DNA of 64,000 nucleotides from an uncultured Alphaproteobacteria bacterium (GTDB taxonomy: Bacteria; Pseudomonadota; Alphaproteobacteria; Rs-D84), in assembly GCA_947175875.1 (NCBI GenBank), contig CAMWON010000002.1:80357-144356 (forward strand). Reading direction: 5' to 3'. The first letter of the stretch is position 1. Every line of letters starts with the position of its first letter. A program made the translations under genes and the position numbers. This document shows positions 30,042 to 60,438 of this stretch, piece after piece. The notes under the pieces were generated by a model, which worked only from the letters and a program-made list of their open reading frames with translations, had not been told where the DNA came from and did no database searches.

Positions 30042-30749
30042 ATGGATTTGCTGATAAAAGGTTCCATAGAATTAAACAAGATGTTCGCCGCGCTGCAGCG
30101 TACGGCGGACGGTCTGCGCCGTGATTTCGGCGAGGTGGAAAACCTGCAGCAGTCATTGCGCGGCGCCCGCGACTTTGTCGCAAAGGCGTCCGCCCGGATA
30201 GAGGAAAGCATTCTGCGCGATTTGCTGCTGGTCCGTCCTGCGGCGGGGCTGCTGACCCCGAACGTCAGCCGTGACGGCGACGGCCGCGATGAATTTGTTT
30301 TGGCGATTTCCGGTGCGTCGAACTTTGTTCGCGCAAATCCGCATTTTGCAATATCGCTGGCACTGCGTTCGAATGACGAAACGAAAATCGCGCTGGTATA
30401 TTCCCCGATTGAAGACAGATTATATTATGCCGAAGACGGCCGTGGCGCATACGTGTTTTCCGCGTTTCATTCCGCGCGCTTAAAGGTGTCGAATTTATCA
30501 GACCCGGCAGATTTGACAATCGCATACAATACGTCCGACATTCGTGCGCCGCGCTGTGCAAACCCGCGCCGTACTGGTTGCCCGGCATTGGATTTGGCAT
30601 GGGTTGCCGCGGGTAAGTTTGATGCGTTCGTATCCGATGCGTTGGATTGGGCCGAAATTGCGGCCGGCGATCTAATTGTGCGCGAGGCATCGGGCCATAT
30701 CGAAATGGGGGCGGACTTAATCGCCACCAACGGCAAGGTTGAGTTATAA
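30042..30749 (+). CDS. Inositol monophosphatase-family protein with a divergent metal-binding motif
   Basis: ...RIEESILRDLL (EE motif); FVLAISGASNFVRANPHFAISLAL aligns to the canonical IDPIDGTxNFxxGxPxFAVSIAL block but the Asp-Pro-Ile-Asp-Gly-Thr residues are replaced; WAEIAAG matches W(D/E)xAAG. Confidence 0.6.
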   Translation: MDLLIKGSIELNKMFAALQRTADGLRRDFGEVENLQQSLRGARDFVAKASARIEESILRDLLLVRPAAGLLTPNVSRDGDGRDEFVLAISGASNFVRANPHFAISLALRSNDETKIALVYSPIEDRLYYAEDGRGAYVFSAFHSARLKVSNLSDPADLTIAYNTSDIRAPRCANPRRTGCPALDLAWVAAGKFDAFVSDALDWAEIAAGDLIVREASGHIEMGADLIATNGKVEL

Positions 30750-30775
30750 GTCGCGTTTCGCATGGAATTTTAAGC

Positions 30776-30799
30776 CGCCTCGTAATGGGGCGGTTTTTA
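30776..30799 (+). terminator. Rho-independent terminator after the IMPase-family gene
   Basis: ccgcc-tcgtaatgg-ggcgg followed by ttttt. Coordinates approximate by 1-2 nt. Confidence 0.5.
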
Positions 30800-30827
30800 C
30801 TGGATTGCCGCGGTCGCTGCCGCTCCC

Positions 30828-30867
30828 TCGCAATGACAGTCGGACAAAACTCATTGTCATTGCGAGC
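30828..30867. repeat. 12-bp perfect inverted repeat CTCGCAATGACA-n16-TGTCATTGCGAG
   Basis: Seen directly: the arms are exact reverse complements. It lies between two terminator hairpins in a 570-bp intergenic region. Coordinates approximate by 1-2 nt. Confidence 0.5.
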
Positions 30868-30900
30868 CCCAACAGGGCGTGGCAATCCAGAAATAAAATC

Positions 30901-30921
30901 CCGCCATCGGCGGGATTTTTA
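30901..30921 (+). terminator. Terminator-like hairpin cccgcc-atc-ggcggg + attttt
   Basis: GC stem followed by a T-run. It could terminate a short transcript containing the upstream inverted repeat. Confidence 0.45.
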
Positions 30922-31019
30922 TCATGCAATTTTCATTACAGTGATTGTTAGAAGTCCGGTCGGGCGATGACGATATATTTAAGAAGACGCGATTCGTCGC
31001 CGCCCGTTATAATTAAATA

Positions 31020-31115
31020 AAGACCACCGGAAAATTCAGGTGGTCGGGGTGTTTAGAAAATCGACAAGTAGCGACCCCGTTGGCCTTCGGCGAACCTTAT
31101 AACCAACGGCACCCC
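31020..31115 (+). ncRNA. Candidate structured RNA element (nested GC-rich helices); identity and strand unknown
   Basis: Long-range 10-bp complement GGTCGGGGTG...CACCCCGACC enclosing CCGTTGG...CCAACGG, which encloses a gccTTCGggc-like hairpin. Adjacent hairpin accacc-ggaaaattca-ggtggt. No ORF with sensible composition. Coordinates approximate. Confidence 0.25.
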
Positions 31116-31287
31116 GACCATGTGTGTCAAGGCATAACGGTGCAAAAACGCAACCGCATACGGATTTCAGATAGATGCAATTTGCACCGTACTTGTCGGG
31201 CTTTCTAAAGGCCCCGAACCCAAATTCCCATTCAGGTTCATTTATTATTATACATTACATTCGGGTAAATCACAAGAATAGATTCAT

Positions 31288-31315
31288 TTGACAAACGGGG
31301 GCTTTGGTGTAAAAT
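31288..31315 (+). promoter_or_regulatory. Sigma70-like promoter TTGACA-n16-TAAAAT upstream of fabD
   Basis: Consensus -35 ttgaca and -10 taaaat. The predicted +1 lies only a few nt before the fabD ATG at 31325, which suggests a leaderless or near-leaderless message. Confidence 0.45.
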
Positions 31316-31324
31316 GTGCGCATT

Positions 31325-32299
31325 ATGAAGAAAGACAGAACCATTTTTGTATTCCCCGGCCAGGGCGCCCAGTATGTCGGCATGGGGCGTGAATTGTGCC
31401 GGGAATTTCCGGCGGCCCGCCTTACGTTCGAAGAAATCGGCGATATTACGTCGCGTCATATTTCCACAATTTGCTTTCGCGGCCCGGAAAGCGTTTTAAA
31501 CCGGCCGGTGAACACGTCGCTGGGGACGTTTGCGCATGCGGTGGCGATTTCCCGCGTGATAGAGGCGGAGATGGGAATGCCGCTGTACGATATCGGCGAC
31601 GCGATGGTGGGGCACTCGCTGGGGCAGTACAGTGCGCTGCACTGCGCGGGCAGTCTGTCGCTGCATGATGCGGCGAAACTGGTGTCGGCGCGTTCGCTGT
31701 ACATGTCCATGGGGCGCGGCGGTGTCGGCATGATTGCGATTATCGGATTGAACAAGCATCAGGTGGAAAATCTGTTGTTCTTGGCGGTGGGACGCGGATT
31801 TGCGGCGATTTCAAATCACAATGCCCGCGACCAGTTTATCATCAGCGGCGAGGATGACGCGCTGGACGCAATCCTGGCCGGTGCCACCGCCCAGGGCGCG
31901 CGCATCGCGCGCCGATTGAACATTGCCGTGCCGGCGCATTGCGCATTGATGGCGCCCGCCGCGATTAAGATGCGAAACCGCTTGGCGCGGGTAAAGGTTC
32001 TGGCACCGCGTACTGACTGGTTCTCGAACCAGACCGCCGATTTAATGTCGGCGCCCGCCGACGTAAAACAATCGTTAATCGACCAGATGACGAACGGCGT
32101 GCGCTGGTACGATATTATGGAAAAGTTCCCGGCGTATAATATCACCCGTTCGTACGAGTTGGGGCCGGGGGCGACGCTGACGCGTTTGATTACGCGTGCA
32201 AAAGTCGGGGTGCGCGCCATGCATACCGATTCGGCGGCAAATGTTCGCGCGGTTATAAATGCAATTGCCGCCGATATGGCGCACGATAATTCGCGTTAA
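31325..32299 (+). CDS. fabD: Malonyl CoA-acyl carrier protein transacylase
   Basis: FVFPGQGAQYVGMG at the N-terminus and the GHSLGQYSA active-site serine motif (GHSLG). Confidence 0.85.
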   Translation: MKKDRTIFVFPGQGAQYVGMGRELCREFPAARLTFEEIGDITSRHISTICFRGPESVLNRPVNTSLGTFAHAVAISRVIEAEMGMPLYDIGDAMVGHSLGQYSALHCAGSLSLHDAAKLVSARSLYMSMGRGGVGMIAIIGLNKHQVENLLFLAVGRGFAAISNHNARDQFIISGEDDALDAILAGATAQGARIARRLNIAVPAHCALMAPAAIKMRNRLARVKVLAPRTDWFSNQTADLMSAPADVKQSLIDQMTNGVRWYDIMEKFPAYNITRSYELGPGATLTRLITRAKVGVRAMHTDSAANVRAVINAIAADMAHDNSR

Positions 32300-47501: not shown

Positions 47502-47520
47502 TCGATAACGCTGTTATTAA

Positions 47521-47555
47521 AAGTGCGACCGGTGTCGGTCGCACTTGTTTTTTTT
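47521..47555 (+). terminator. Rho-independent terminator after tatA
   Basis: aagtgcgaccg-gtgt-cggtcgcactt, a 12-bp stem, followed by gtttttttt. Confidence 0.65.
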
Positions 47556-47709
47556 ATCCGCTTAAATTATACTGAACGTGAATTCAACAGGGATGTTGGT
47601 TCTGGGACTTGAAAATCCCATAAGCAAACGGCGCAATGCGTCGTAATCCGACATGAAAATGCGGCGTGTTTTACGTTGCATGTTTTGTACCCGGCTGTTG
47701 GCCGGGGAT

Positions 47710-47812
47710 CTGTGATTATAAGGGCGCGAACGCGCCCGAAGGTCACAGGGTCATTTTTGCTTATGATTTTTCAAATCCCCGGCCGCCATTTCTTTGGCGG
47801 TATTTCTTTTTA
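47710..47812 (+). promoter_or_regulatory. Structured 5' leader of Cys-rich paralog 2 with two terminator-like hairpins, the second ending about 30 nt before the ATG
   Basis: ctgtga-[ggcgcgaacgcgcc]-tcacag with tcattttt (about 47710-47758), then ccgcc-atttctttg-gcgg + tatttcttttt aacc (about 47783-47815), then RBS aaaaaggagcgggtag ATG. Confidence 0.35.
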
Positions 47813-47832
47813 ACCGAAAAAGGAGCGGGTAG

Positions 47833-48603
47833 ATGAAAAGAAAGCATAAAACGTGTTTTGTCGCAATCGGAATAATAATTGGCCTGGGGGGCGTGGGGCG
47901 CGCGGCAACCCCAACAGTCGAAACGTGCGCAGAAGCTTTTGCAACCGAAGCGCCGGAATGCATATCGTGGGATTTTTTTACTTCCGGTATGGGGAATGGG
48001 GGGGAAATGTATATTTGTTCATGCGCAGAATGCGAGTCCGGGTATCATAATGACGGTTCAAGTAAATATAAATATTATAAAAATGATTATTTTTATATGT
48101 CTAATTCTTGTAATAAAGCAACAGAAACAGGTGGTGGCGGGGGTGGCACAACAACCAAAACGTGCAGCAAGGGTTCATTGTGCACAATGTGCAAGGGGCC
48201 GAATGTGACCATAAACGGTCAAATATATTGCGGCCTGTGGGCCGATACCAACGGGGTTAAAACCTGTTCGGCATCATCTGTTGGGGCGAATGTCGCATAT
48301 ACCATGTCGCCGTGTTGCGATTCTGATGGCAAAGCGGTTGGAGGCGCGACGGGTTGTTACGTTATATCATGCAAGACGGGGATGGTTGCGTCCGATGCGA
48401 AAACGTCATGTGTTTGTGATGTCGGATACTATGGAACAACGACCACGGGTTGTACGCGGTGTCCTGCGTCCGGCGGTACGTACGGGCTGACCAGCGGCAA
48501 GGGCAGTACGCAAATTACCGATTGTTATTTTCCGGCCGGTCTATTGATTAAAGACACCACCGGTACGTATCAATATACCCAGGATTGTTATTATTCTAAT
48601 TAA
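47833..48603 (+). CDS. Secreted cysteine-rich protein, paralog 2 (conserved C-terminal Cys module)
   Basis: Signal peptide MKRKHKTCFVAIGIIIGLGGVGRAA; Gly-run GGGGGGTTT. C-terminus CVCDVGYYGTTTTGCTRCPASGGTYGLTSGKGSTQITDCYFPAGLLIKDTTGTYQYTQDCYYSN aligns with paralogs 1 and 3. Confidence 0.6.
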   Translation: MKRKHKTCFVAIGIIIGLGGVGRAATPTVETCAEAFATEAPECISWDFFTSGMGNGGEMYICSCAECESGYHNDGSSKYKYYKNDYFYMSNSCNKATETGGGGGGTTTKTCSKGSLCTMCKGPNVTINGQIYCGLWADTNGVKTCSASSVGANVAYTMSPCCDSDGKAVGGATGCYVISCKTGMVASDAKTSCVCDVGYYGTTTTGCTRCPASGGTYGLTSGKGSTQITDCYFPAGLLIKDTTGTYQYTQDCYYSN

Positions 48604-48604
48604 A

Positions 48605-48633
48605 ACAAACCCGCCGTTTGGCGGGTGTTTTTA
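48605..48633. terminator. Bidirectional terminator between convergent Cys-rich paralogs 2 and 3
   Basis: aaacaaa cccgcc-gtttg-gcggg tgttttt: the hairpin core cccgccgtttggcggg flanked by A-run and T-run. Confidence 0.6.
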
Positions 48634-49299
48634 CTTTGTGTAGCAGCATTCTTTATTGAATGTCCCCGAGCCAGTTGAATCAGAAAAAGATGTGCCGGCT
48701 GGTATGCAGCATGTCGTTATATCTGTTGTGCCGATTGCATTTGTGCCCCGTGTGCTGCCTGATCCCGGACATAGTGTGCATACAGTGGATGCGCCACTGC
48801 CGCCGGACTTGTAATAACCGGCTGCGCAGCCGTATTCTGTTGTTGCCGGGCGTTCTTGCGAGCAGTAATAATAATTGCGCGAATCACTGCCGTTAAACGA
48901 TGCGACTTGTCTGTGTACAACATAACCGGAATATGTCGACCATTTACTGTACATGGGTTCAGATTGTTGTATGCCGCATGCGCTGCATGCGGATTCGCCC
49001 CCGGAATAACAGAAATATTTTGCGCCGTTTGCATCTGTACCGATAAGGCAGTCGCTAAGGTTGCTGTTATAGTCATCAGTTGTTGGCGGGCAGGTTGAAA
49101 AGTGAGTCGTATTACTGCATTCAATATGTTTGCAATCACATTTTCCGAGTATGTAATCGCCGGGGCCGCTGCTGCCTTCATAGCAGTATGAACCTATTGT
49201 TGATGCTGTGGTCGCAATCAGCCGATATGTGGCTGCATCGGTTACATTTGGTGTGGCAATTGACAGGCATATTGCCGGTATAAAAAGTTTCTTTATCAT
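48631..49299 (-). CDS. Secreted cysteine-rich protein, paralog 3 (conserved C-terminal Cys module)
   Basis: Start at MIKKLFIPAICLSIATPNVTDA (signal). C-terminus YGCAAGYYKSGGSGASTVCTLCPGSGSTRGTNAIGTTDITTCCIPAGTSFSDSTGSGTFNKECCYTK. Confidence 0.6.
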   Translation of the reverse strand: MIKKLFIPAICLSIATPNVTDAATYRLIATTASTIGSYCYEGSSGPGDYILGKCDCKHIECSNTTHFSTCPPTTDDYNSNLSDCLIGTDANGAKYFCYSGGESACSACGIQQSEPMYSKWSTYSGYVVHRQVASFNGSDSRNYYYCSQERPATTEYGCAAGYYKSGGSGASTVCTLCPGSGSTRGTNAIGTTDITTCCIPAGTSFSDSTGSGTFNKECCYTK

Positions 49300-49324
49300 T
49301 TCTGATCCCCCGTTTTCCTTGGTT

Positions 49325-49355
49325 AAAAAGAAAACCACTAAATAAATTCAAGTGG
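49325..49355 (-). promoter_or_regulatory. Terminator-like hairpin + U-run immediately upstream of the RBS of Cys-rich paralog 3 (leader attenuator candidate)
   Basis: Minus-strand reading: ccact-tgaatttattt-agtgg ttttcttttt aacc aaggaaaacggggga...ATG. It shares the tttctttttaacc tail with the paralog 2 leader. Confidence 0.35.
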
Positions 49356-49631
49356 TTGGAGGTTCGAAACAATTATAGAGAATTGCGGGCTTATTTATAT
49401 ATATCACCCCCCTCCAACCGCGGGGTTGGGGGAATAGCACCACGTATCAAATGAAAGTGCCGTGCGAACGTAGGTTGCCCGGCAGCGTCAATTTGTCAGT
49501 GGTGTTTTTTTCTTGTCTTGATGCAAGACACTCTATAACGGGTTTCGACGCCCCGCCGCAGGAATATCCCGCGGCGTTTTTATGTTGGCATAATGTATGC
49601 GGGCTGTAAAGAAAAATGTGCAAAAAAATAC

Positions 49632-60362: not shown

Positions 60363-60438
60363 TGGTGGGCGCGCAGGGACTCGAACCCTGGACCCACTGA
60401 TTAAGAGTCAGTTGCTCTACCAACTGAGCTACGCACCC
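60363..60438 (-). tRNA. tRNA-Lys (anticodon CTT), CCA encoded
   Basis: Reverse complement GGGTGCGTAGCTCAGTTGGTAGAGCAACTGACTCTTAATCAGTGGGTCCAGGGTTCGAGTCCCTGCGCGCCCACCA: 7-bp acceptor, D-arm GCTCAGTTGGTAGAGC, anticodon loop CTCTTAA, T-arm GGGTTCGAGTCCC. Near-identical to E. coli tRNA-Lys. Confidence 0.85.

Follow-up and report, generated by a model that had tools for sequence, protein, structure and literature searches.

The stretch analysed here (the window) comprises 64,000 nt of contig CAMWON010000002.1 (assembly GCA_947175875.1, positions 80,357 to 144,356 of the forward strand) from an uncultured alphaproteobacterium of the GTDB lineage Rs-D84, and our subject is the gap between an IMPase/suhB-like gene and fabD. 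The IMPase gene occupies 30042-30749 on the plus strand, with its stop codon ending at 30749, and fabD starts on the same strand with an ATG at 31325, which leaves a gap of 575 nt. A sequence-only reading of this DNA had described a gap of about 570 bp without real open reading frames (ORFs); indeed, no conserved ORF is found in it. The same reading proposed candidate small RNAs (sRNAs) in the gap. The helices that it described are non-random, and its observation is largely confirmed, while its interpretation is partly supported: the second half of the gap is a conserved, covarying structured RNA, and the first half is an inserted repeat. The gap thus consists of two independent elements, A (30800-30890), a repeat, and B (31241-30895), an RNA of the minus strand. 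We consider it likely that A is a passive inserted repeat and, jointly, that B is a minus-strand RNA gene of an attenuator family. The features of the locus, in window positions, are as follows.

30774..30797, plus strand: terminator hairpin of the IMPase/suhB-like gene, AAGCCGCC-loop-GGCGGTTTTT (sequence, fold, alignment and strain comparison)
30800..30890, strandless: element A, an inverted doublet of a unit resembling repetitive extragenic palindromic (REP) sequences (structure, strain variation and IMG/VR family)
30895..30919, both strands: T2, bidirectional intrinsic terminator AAAATCCCGCC-ATC-GGCGGGATTTT (4 pairs with double changes)
30920..31011, minus strand: 3' domain with hairpin P5 (31006-30995 with 30972-30961), no ORF
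31012..31045, minus strand: T1 hairpin GACCACC-loop-GGUGGUC (31045-31039 with 31028-31022), 100% paired, G.U on the minus strand only
31041..31120, minus strand: I6, alternative (antiterminator) helix of UGGUCGGGGUG (31120-10) with CACCCCGACCA (31051-41)
31046..31215, minus strand: four-way junction core, P1-P4 (compensatory changes; covariance models R1 and R2, see below)
31215-31191 with 31069-31046, minus strand: P1, closing helix of about 25 bp
31190-81 with 31146-37, minus strand: P2
31134-26 with 31118-10, minus strand: P3, rich in G.U
31109-03 with 31083-77, minus strand: P4, with a conserved internal loop UUAUAAGG/CCGAA
31216..31239, minus strand: P0, 5' hairpin GAACCUGAAU-GGGA-AUUUGGGUUC, helix 100% paired
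31247..31275, minus strand: promoter-like site TTGTGA-17-TATAAT, a consensus match back to back with the fabD promoter-like site
31288..31315, plus strand: fabD promoter-like site TTGACA-16-TAAAAT, a consensus match that ends 9 nt before the ATG at 31325

By its FabD relatives, the window falls in a lineage of uncultured gut Alphaproteobacteria near Candidatus Enterousia. Relatives' loci (L numbers below) were gathered by exact-protein and homologue look-ups, and the gene order L31-IMPase-gap-fabD-rarA is retained in relatives with 70-94% FabD identity. Two parts of the gap fold into structures that none of 200 shuffles equalled in stability, namely 30765-30930 (z = -7.9/-6.1) and 31015-31235 (z = -4.4/-4.2). 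The latter lies in a module of 430 nt (30895-31324), which is conserved as a whole in L001, L002, L036, L078-82, L084 and L087. Helix statistics for this copy (copy 1) were taken from an alignment of eight orthologues, in which pairing holds in 96.3% of the cells and double compensatory changes occur at 19 pairs; none of 500 shuffles reaches this, although the alignment represents about 6-7 independent lineages and the shuffle statistics overstate the significance. Slid-control alignments of the eight orthologues are 38-51% paired (36-51% counting the set with the paralogue described below). With the paralogue added, 97.4% of the cells are paired and 21 of 48 pairs have double changes, again with 0 of 500 shuffles as good. 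Alignment of relatives, which the sequence-only reading had suggested as a check, thus bears out conservation and covariation in 30895-31260, while 30750-30893 is missing in close relatives.

The strand of this RNA follows from several observations. The consensus fold computed by RNAalifold has an energy of -107.2 kcal/mol on the minus strand (covariation term -5.05) and of -81.0 kcal/mol on the plus strand (covariation term -1.22). The predicted helices hold 74 G.U cells on the minus strand versus 8 on the plus strand, a bias also seen in those helices that had initially been detected as inverted repeats of the DNA, without regard to strand, and reading the plus strand turns the same positions into A.C/C.A mismatches. 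Together with the back-to-back promoter-like sites, these data place the RNA on the minus strand, outside the fabD mRNA. Element B is a conserved folded RNA. The nested helices of the sequence-only reading are therefore those of a real RNA, which lies on the opposite strand and extends, far past the helix described, from about 31241 to 31012 or 30895. The long-range helix that had been given as 10 bp (GGTCGGGGTG/CACCCCGACC) is present as 11 bp (TGGTCGGGGTG/CACCCCGACCA, 31041-31051/31110-31120), with CCGTTGG/CCAACGG inside it (31077-31083/31103-31109); it belongs to the alternative conformer of a terminator/antiterminator switch and not to the ground-state fold. Two long-range helices come in addition to those listed earlier, 31044-31070/31190-31217 and 31137-46/31181-90.

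The position of the structure directly upstream of fabD, and inverted repeats that could fold on either strand (z = -4.4), might suggest a plus-strand 5' leader or riboswitch of fabD. Besides the mismatches, which fall at the variable positions, and a consensus energy that is 26 kcal/mol worse, this idea meets the conserved fabD promoter-like site, which lies downstream of the structure and, being 9 nt from the ATG, leaves the structured region outside the fabD mRNA. Moreover, fabD of L083 and L088 keeps this promoter (TTGACAAA) and has no such structure: the module is entirely missing there and the IMPase terminator directly abuts the fabD promoter. Such absence as a unit fits an independent gene and not a fabD leader. 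As the paralogues of the RNA are also unrelated to fabD, we regard a fabD leader as close to untenable. fabD itself appears to be leaderless (31288-31327), with no Shine-Dalgarno (SD) sequence and the same promoter-ATG spacing in all orthologues, including L083 and L088.

Element B would be a minus-strand RNA gene, divergent from fabD, whose own promoter-like site is followed by P0, a four-way-junction sensor domain and T1. The hexamers of the putative promoter are kept in the orthologues as TTGT(G/A)N ... TA(T/C)AAT or CATAAT. In P0 the 3' side is invariant and the 5' side differs by transitions only, which yield G.U on the minus strand (15 G.U cells, against 0 on the plus strand). The T1 hairpin is directly followed on its 3' side by a U tract, UUUAUUU (31021-31012); its loop of 10 nt is beyond the limit of the terminator scan. 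Downstream of T1, the helices of the 3' domain have 4 pairs with double changes, the P5 loop holds a conserved GCGUCUUC motif, and a conserved single-stranded CUUCUAACAAUCAC motif lies 3' of P5; no further copy of this domain was found in any fetched sequence. T2, the further terminator-like hairpin of the sequence-only reading, is present with 11 bp and a 3-nt loop, and the longer form of the minus-strand RNA would end there; the same hairpin is the IMPase terminator in relatives without the insertion. A small protein was considered and rejected: the ORF from an invariant AUG spans 8, 8, 34, 21, 68, 94, 58 and 12 codons in the eight orthologues, and this variation from 8 to 94 codons indicates that the region is non-coding.

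The RNA has paralogues in the window. R1, a covariance model of the copy-1 junction, detects copy 2 at 47603-47781 on the plus strand with 61.7 bits (E ~1e-17), and R2, a model that also includes copy 2, detects a diverged copy 3 at 49554-49358 on the minus strand with a weak score of 18.1 bits. Their features are given below.

47545..47832, plus strand: copy 2, downstream of the terminator of a TatA gene
47545-73, plus strand: putative promoter of copy 2, TTGTTT-17-TATACT, below the threshold of the promoter scan
~47580-47602, plus strand: P0 of copy 2, with a GGGA loop
47603-47781, plus strand: four-way junction of copy 2 (R1)
47690-95 with 47701-06, plus strand: P3 of copy 2
47700-09 with 47775-84, plus strand: I6 of copy 2
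47782-47801, plus strand: T1 of copy 2, followed by a U tract, called terminator-like by the scan
47820-25, plus strand: SD sequence of copy 2, AAGGAG
47833-48603, plus strand: gene behind copy 2 (ATG at 47833), 256-aa secreted Cys-rich protein with no Pfam match
49300..49585, minus strand: copy 3, diverged, with P1 UCGAAAC.../GUUAUAGAG...
49419-11 with 49362-54, minus strand: segment 2/3 pair of copy 3, GGUUGGAGG with CCUCCAACC
49357-51 with 49339-33, minus strand: T1 of copy 3, AACCACU/AGUGGUU, and U tract
purine-rich SD-like GGGGGA of copy 3, minus strand, 7 nt ahead of the ATG at 49299
48631-49299, minus strand: gene behind copy 3, paralogous secreted Cys-rich protein

The genes behind copies 2 and 3 are convergent and encode signal-peptide proteins rich in Cys, Gly and Thr, neither with a Pfam match. 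The two proteins have a common C-terminal domain of 65 aa (E = 6e-9; C..GYY...C..CP.SG.T.G...G.T.IT.C..PAG...D.TG). Furthermore, R2 detects orthologous leaders in L091, L092 (two), L093 and L094, all of which stand ahead of secreted Cys-rich ORFs, either orthologous or related ones, and have T1 and an SD sequence. The GGGA loop of P0 recurs in copy 2, L091 and L092. L091 and L092 carry the first Cys-rich gene only, which indicates that the second arose by a lineage-specific inverted duplication. Smaller Cys-rich relatives of 120-126 aa are found in L092 and L094. Each leader of the copy-2 type is accompanied by an upstream terminator, GTGCGACC...GGTCGCACTTGTTTTTTT (47520-47573; L091, ~2175-2232; L092, ~1410-1470 and 2195-2240), whose T tract supplies the putative -35 element (TTGTTT), and the duplicated module therefore seems to include this overlap of terminator and promoter. 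In a relative with 79% identity, the fabD locus itself (L089, 25-246, and L090, 128-349, both on the minus strand) has a simpler switch, CCUCCAA/GGUUGGAGG/CCUCCAACC, with T1 and an SD sequence, which precedes a non-secreted ORF of 73 aa without a Pfam match. This platform is closer to copy 3 of the window than to copy 1, a hint that family members may have exchanged sequence. A gene follows on the same strand in copy 2, copy 3, L091, L092 (two), L093, L094 and L089/L090, and is absent for copy 1.

A metagenome scan with a copy-2 motif gave one match (L094), and a scan with the pattern GGTGGTCGGGGTG-N50-80-CACCCCGACCAT gave none. When phage and plasmid collections were searched by BLAST, the RNA matched a generic terminator only. 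An nhmmer search with the gap profile found no match in 28 Enterousia-like fabD loci, which have another gene upstream and gaps of 80-190 nt.

All these RNAs share a set of competing helices. In copy 1, segment 2 (GGUCGGGGUG) pairs alternatively with segment 1, forming P3, or with segment 3 (CACCCCGACC), forming I6. Segment 3 overlaps P1 via CCCC and the 5' arm of T1 via its last four bases, GACC. I6 therefore cannot coexist with P3, the GGGG/CCCC end of P1 or the base of T1. All ten pairs of I6 are Watson-Crick in 11 of 15 members and 8-9 of them in the other four, and four sequence versions of the helix occur. The T1 hairpin with a U-rich tail is present in all 15 members, and its 5' arm overlaps segment 3 by 4 nt in 14 of them and by 2 nt in L092_c2b (arm CCGCCAG). 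Moreover, segment 1 and the T1 arm covary with I6 across the versions: segments 1/2/3 read CCCGAC/GGUCGGGG/CCCCGACC in L091 and L092 versus CCCGGC/GGCCGGGG/CCCCGGCC in copy 2, and CCAACC/GGUUGGAGG/CCUCCAACC in copy 3. L090 has the segment 2/3 pair of copy 3, its segment-1 partner being seen by eye only. For each of the 6 members folded, the minimum free energy (MFE) fold consists of the junction plus T1, and the best fold with I6 is 10-17 kcal/mol less stable. In the 5' strand of P1, a local hairpin, GGGNC...GNCCC, covaries between copies 1 and 2 and would suit a state in which P1 is open. Leader-peptide attenuation was rejected, as no conserved short ORF is found near segment 1.

These alternative pairings, together with the position of the paralogues in cis to their genes, point to a family of riboswitch-like terminator/antiterminator attenuators. 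With P1 and P3 formed, as in the computed ground state, T1 would form and end transcription near 31012, and the RNA would be about 230 nt long. If P1 were prevented, I6 could form and block T1, allowing read-through. The default or effector-bound state would accordingly be the one that terminates, and the junction may sense an effector, either a metabolite or a protein. In the paralogues, read-through would lead into the genes for secreted Cys-rich proteins; in copy 1, it would lead into the non-coding P5 domain of about 115 nt that ends at T2, and the RNA would be about 345 nt long.

The best reading of copy 1 is that of an ORF-less orphan of this leader family, which may act as a regulated non-coding RNA or as an effector decoy. 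Several observations weigh against the readings offered here for copy 1 and its family. As copy 1 has no ORF downstream, cis regulation alone cannot account for it. The module, entirely missing in the two relatives named above, is cut down to a T1 remnant in L085 and replaced in L089 and L090 by the simpler version with the 73-aa ORF, which makes it dispensable, so that it could be a slowly decaying relic. The sequence identity of the 3' domain is about that of fabD third codon positions and no higher, which means that the constraint there is mainly structural. The small number of lineages in the alignment, the weak score of copy 3 and the sub-threshold promoter of copy 2 count on the same side. 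In L085 (942-1294), the T1-hairpin remnant is fused to the fabD promoter, and the remainder consists of other palindromic repeats (of GTTCACCTC... and GGATCCCGCGGTCAAGCCGCGGGA types).

The main rival is that copy 1 is a relic leader which lost its downstream gene and now decays neutrally. The losses just listed and the pace at which the 3' domain evolves would suit this, as would the related platform of L089 and L090, which is followed by the 73-aa ORF. Against it, lineages that share 52-55% identity at fabD third codon positions retain 88-100% identity in P0 and 61-78% in the junction. Furthermore, compensatory changes keep all helices, including P5 and T2, where a relic would gather helix-breaking changes, and the promoter hexamers are conserved. 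We therefore hold a neutral relic to be improbable.

As another possibility, copy 1 could be the gene of a trans-acting, possibly Hfq-type, sRNA, for which the junction would be a scaffold, I6 either incidental or a legacy of an ancestral leader, and the single-stranded CU-rich 3' motifs the seeds that act on mRNAs. In favour, it lacks an ORF and is equipped with a promoter-like site of its own and two Rho-independent terminators; the CU-rich motifs, GCGUCUUC in the P5 loop and single-stranded CUUCUAACAAUCAC, are conserved; and it is divergent from fabD, like many pairs of regulator and target. However, the same architecture appears to serve as a 5' leader in at least five other places, and I6, P3 and T1 covary as a set, which a scaffold would not need. 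Sequence conservation of the 3' domain is poor, and a crude RNAduplex screen of it against 56 translation-initiation regions of the window gave meaningless long duplexes and no meaningful target. A trans-acting sRNA is thus doubtful, and an orphan of the leader family is the reading that we retain for copy 1.

The other half of the gap has a different origin. For this half, the sequence-only reading had proposed an sRNA unit of about 120 nt (30800-30921), preceded by two terminator hairpins, of which we find one only, at ~30774-30797. Element A is built as follows.

30803-30837: left unit, GATTGC...GCAATGAC
30856-30887: right unit, GTCATTGC...GCAATC
30800-09/30881-90: outer arms CTGGATTGCC/GGCAATCCAG, absent from the sequence-only reading
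30827-38/30855-66: inner 12-bp arms

The inner arms are the exact 12-bp inverted repeat with a 16-nt spacer of the earlier description, present at 30827-30838/30855-30866. The element also carries a terminal inverted repeat, CTGGATTGC/GCAATCCAG, which together with a target-site duplication would mark a miniature inverted-repeat transposable element. The two closest species (L001 and L002) lack exactly the 144-nt segment 30750-30893, and so does L035, whose IMPase protein is identical to that of the window; in all three, the IMPase stop codon directly abuts the 30895-30919 hairpin, and the terminator at 30774-30797, which falls inside the segment, is missing with it. L036, again with an identical IMPase protein, has two tandem copies of A at the same site, differing in their internal sequences. 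The copy number of A thus varies among 0, 1 and 2 in strains with identical IMPase proteins. Six Logan contigs (short-read assemblies with an identical IMPase protein, among loci L030-L038) break inside A or at its edge.

The unit recurs in unrelated sequences. The loop of the left unit (GAGGGAGCGGCAGCGACCGCG) is nearly identical to that of units in unrelated contigs, and the pattern TCGCAATGAC-N8-38-GTCATTGCGA has 46 sites in 39 IMG/VR contigs, 33 of them with both flanks GATTGC/GCAATC (about 1% is expected by chance per flank). The basic unit, GTCATTGC-GAG-small variable hairpin-GCAATC, occurs in 194 copies in the 330 kb of these 39 contigs (L039-L077), about one per 1.7 kb, and 72 of the 194 sit in inverted doublets. 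About 20 of the 39 contigs are fragments of one group of small tailed phages (SPP1-type portal, capsid, SU10-type adaptor), in which a repeat unit stands immediately upstream of the portal gene. L052 and L077 have tandem half-sites, TCGCAATGACA, at a spacing of about 22 nt.

Exact absence in close relatives, 0-2 copies among strains and recurrence in unrelated contigs lead us to conclude that A is a recent strain-variable insertion of a REP/REPIN-like repeat and not an sRNA. An sRNA gene at 30800-30921 would account for the very stable fold (z = -7.9) and for the terminator hairpin that follows. However, 30800-30890 is missing in the closest relatives and in one strain with an identical IMPase protein, is duplicated in another, and belongs to a repeat family spread over unrelated phage and environmental contigs. 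Nor was a promoter-like site detected for such a gene, and its supposed terminator, the 30895-30919 hairpin, belongs to the conserved flank and not to the insertion, being a pre-existing structure common to IMPase and the minus-strand RNA. An sRNA gene here is therefore very improbable. As an inserted repeat, A would lie passively in a transcriptionally dead zone between two convergent terminators.

REP, BIME and REPIN elements are associated with RAYT proteins; other intergenic palindromic repeats include the Rickettsia RPE and the Neisseria Correia elements. Like REP/BIME/REPIN, A is built from a short, imperfectly palindromic unit whose base is conserved while its top varies and covaries, and forms an inverted doublet foldable into one long hairpin, intergenic, beside terminators and strain-variable. 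It differs from REP/REPIN in its head, GTCA versus GTAG, and in that its family is scattered over unrelated phage and environmental contigs instead of being confined to one genome. Some results weigh against the insertion reading of A. The 64-kb window holds this one doublet and no other; no transposase was identified near the repeat in the IMG/VR loci, the proteins of the window not having been screened for Y1 transposases; and no target-site duplication was identified, as no compared empty site keeps the first terminator. Fuzzy matches to A in the window are at shuffle level (11 versus 7.1), so that the many copies per genome expected of REP/REPIN are not seen. Literature searches with the repeat's sequence strings found no published description of it and returned primer coincidences only. 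The unit GTCATTGC...GCAATC is common in environmental and phage contigs and breaks metagenome assemblies, and it is probably a source of spurious ORF calls.

Neither element belongs to a catalogued RNA family at threshold. The Rfam scan that the sequence-only reading had suggested was run with Rfam 15 (4227 families, suhB/mmgR and the known riboswitches among them) over the whole window at gathering threshold and returned tRNA-Lys only; in E-value mode, 30650-31450 gave terminator-driven noise only. ARAGORN, used for tRNA and tmRNA in the window, likewise found tRNA-Lys only and no tmRNA. This tRNA-Lys (CUU), at 60363-60438 on the minus strand, is the sole Rfam/ARAGORN match of the window at threshold. 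Housekeeping RNAs (6S, SRP, RNase P and two-piece tmRNA) were considered and ruled out, with neither an Rfam/ARAGORN match nor signature motifs.

Transcription-attenuating systems include the purine, SAM-I and Mn2+ (yybP-ykoY) riboswitches and the trp-type 1:2/2:3/3:4 attenuators. Such terminator/antiterminator riboswitches and leaders are the closest systems in kind to the B family, which likewise has a sensor domain closed by a switching P1 and three mutually exclusive helices (P3, I6 and T1). In copies 2 and 3 and in the orthologues, an intrinsic terminator is followed by an SD sequence and an ORF, and several copies per genome precede related genes. The B family differs in having no match at threshold among the 4227 Rfam families and no conserved leader peptide, and copy 1 in having no ORF. 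Riboswitch-controlled or riboswitch-derived non-coding RNAs are represented by SreA/SreB (SAM) of Listeria and by Rli55/EutX (B12), which use known aptamers. The orphan copy 1 resembles them as a sensor plus terminator that would gate or constitute a non-coding RNA; unlike for these SAM and B12 aptamers, both its ligand and a trans function are hypothetical.

The best-scoring Rfam family for leaders of the copy-2 type is RF02221, sRNA-Xcc1, an 88-nt RNA of Xanthomonas integron cassettes. It scores 32.1 bits on copy 2 and 28.4-31.7 bits on the L092 and L094 leaders, below its gathering score of 53, and these matches are not independent because the matched sequences are related; copy 1 gives no match at E <= 10. 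The alignment covers the conformer closed by I6, with a GGyCGGGG/CCCCGrCC closing helix, the P4 hairpin, whose internal loop is AUA, and another small hairpin. A closing helix with two hairpins is seen in copy 2 in this alternative conformer only and not in the MFE fold. The B element also differs from sRNA-Xcc1 in being twice as long, in adding P0, P1, P2, P3 and a terminator, and in having no integron or toxin context. sRNA-Xcc1 lies upstream of symE in Xanthomonas cassettes (bioRxiv 10.1101/2025.06.18.660453) and upstream of an ORF6N gene in APSE (10.1101/2020.03.17.996009). We treat the kinship with sRNA-Xcc1 as a lead, not as membership. A bolder proposal, possible and on balance unlikely, is that the junction is the aptamer of a new class of metabolite or ion riboswitch that switches off a small regulon of secreted Cys-rich proteins, that the fabD copy is a free-standing riboswitch gating a non-coding 3' domain (as a riboswitch-controlled sRNA or a decoy for a ligand or factor), and that the family may be distantly related to sRNA-Xcc1. 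If so, the 'trans-acting sRNA' Xcc1 would have to be seen as what a cis-acting leader produces on termination or in the ON state.

The switch of the B family is directly testable with reporters, because P3, I6 and T1 change together. If correct, our reading would add a family of structured cis-regulatory RNAs with a clear switch logic that is absent from Rfam. The family would belong to poorly known uncultured gut Alphaproteobacteria near Candidatus Enterousia and would be linked to uncharacterised secreted Cys-rich proteins. Moreover, copy 1 would be a natural, ORF-less and separately transcribed copy of a leader, and would thus bear on how riboswitch-like leaders may become stand-alone RNAs.

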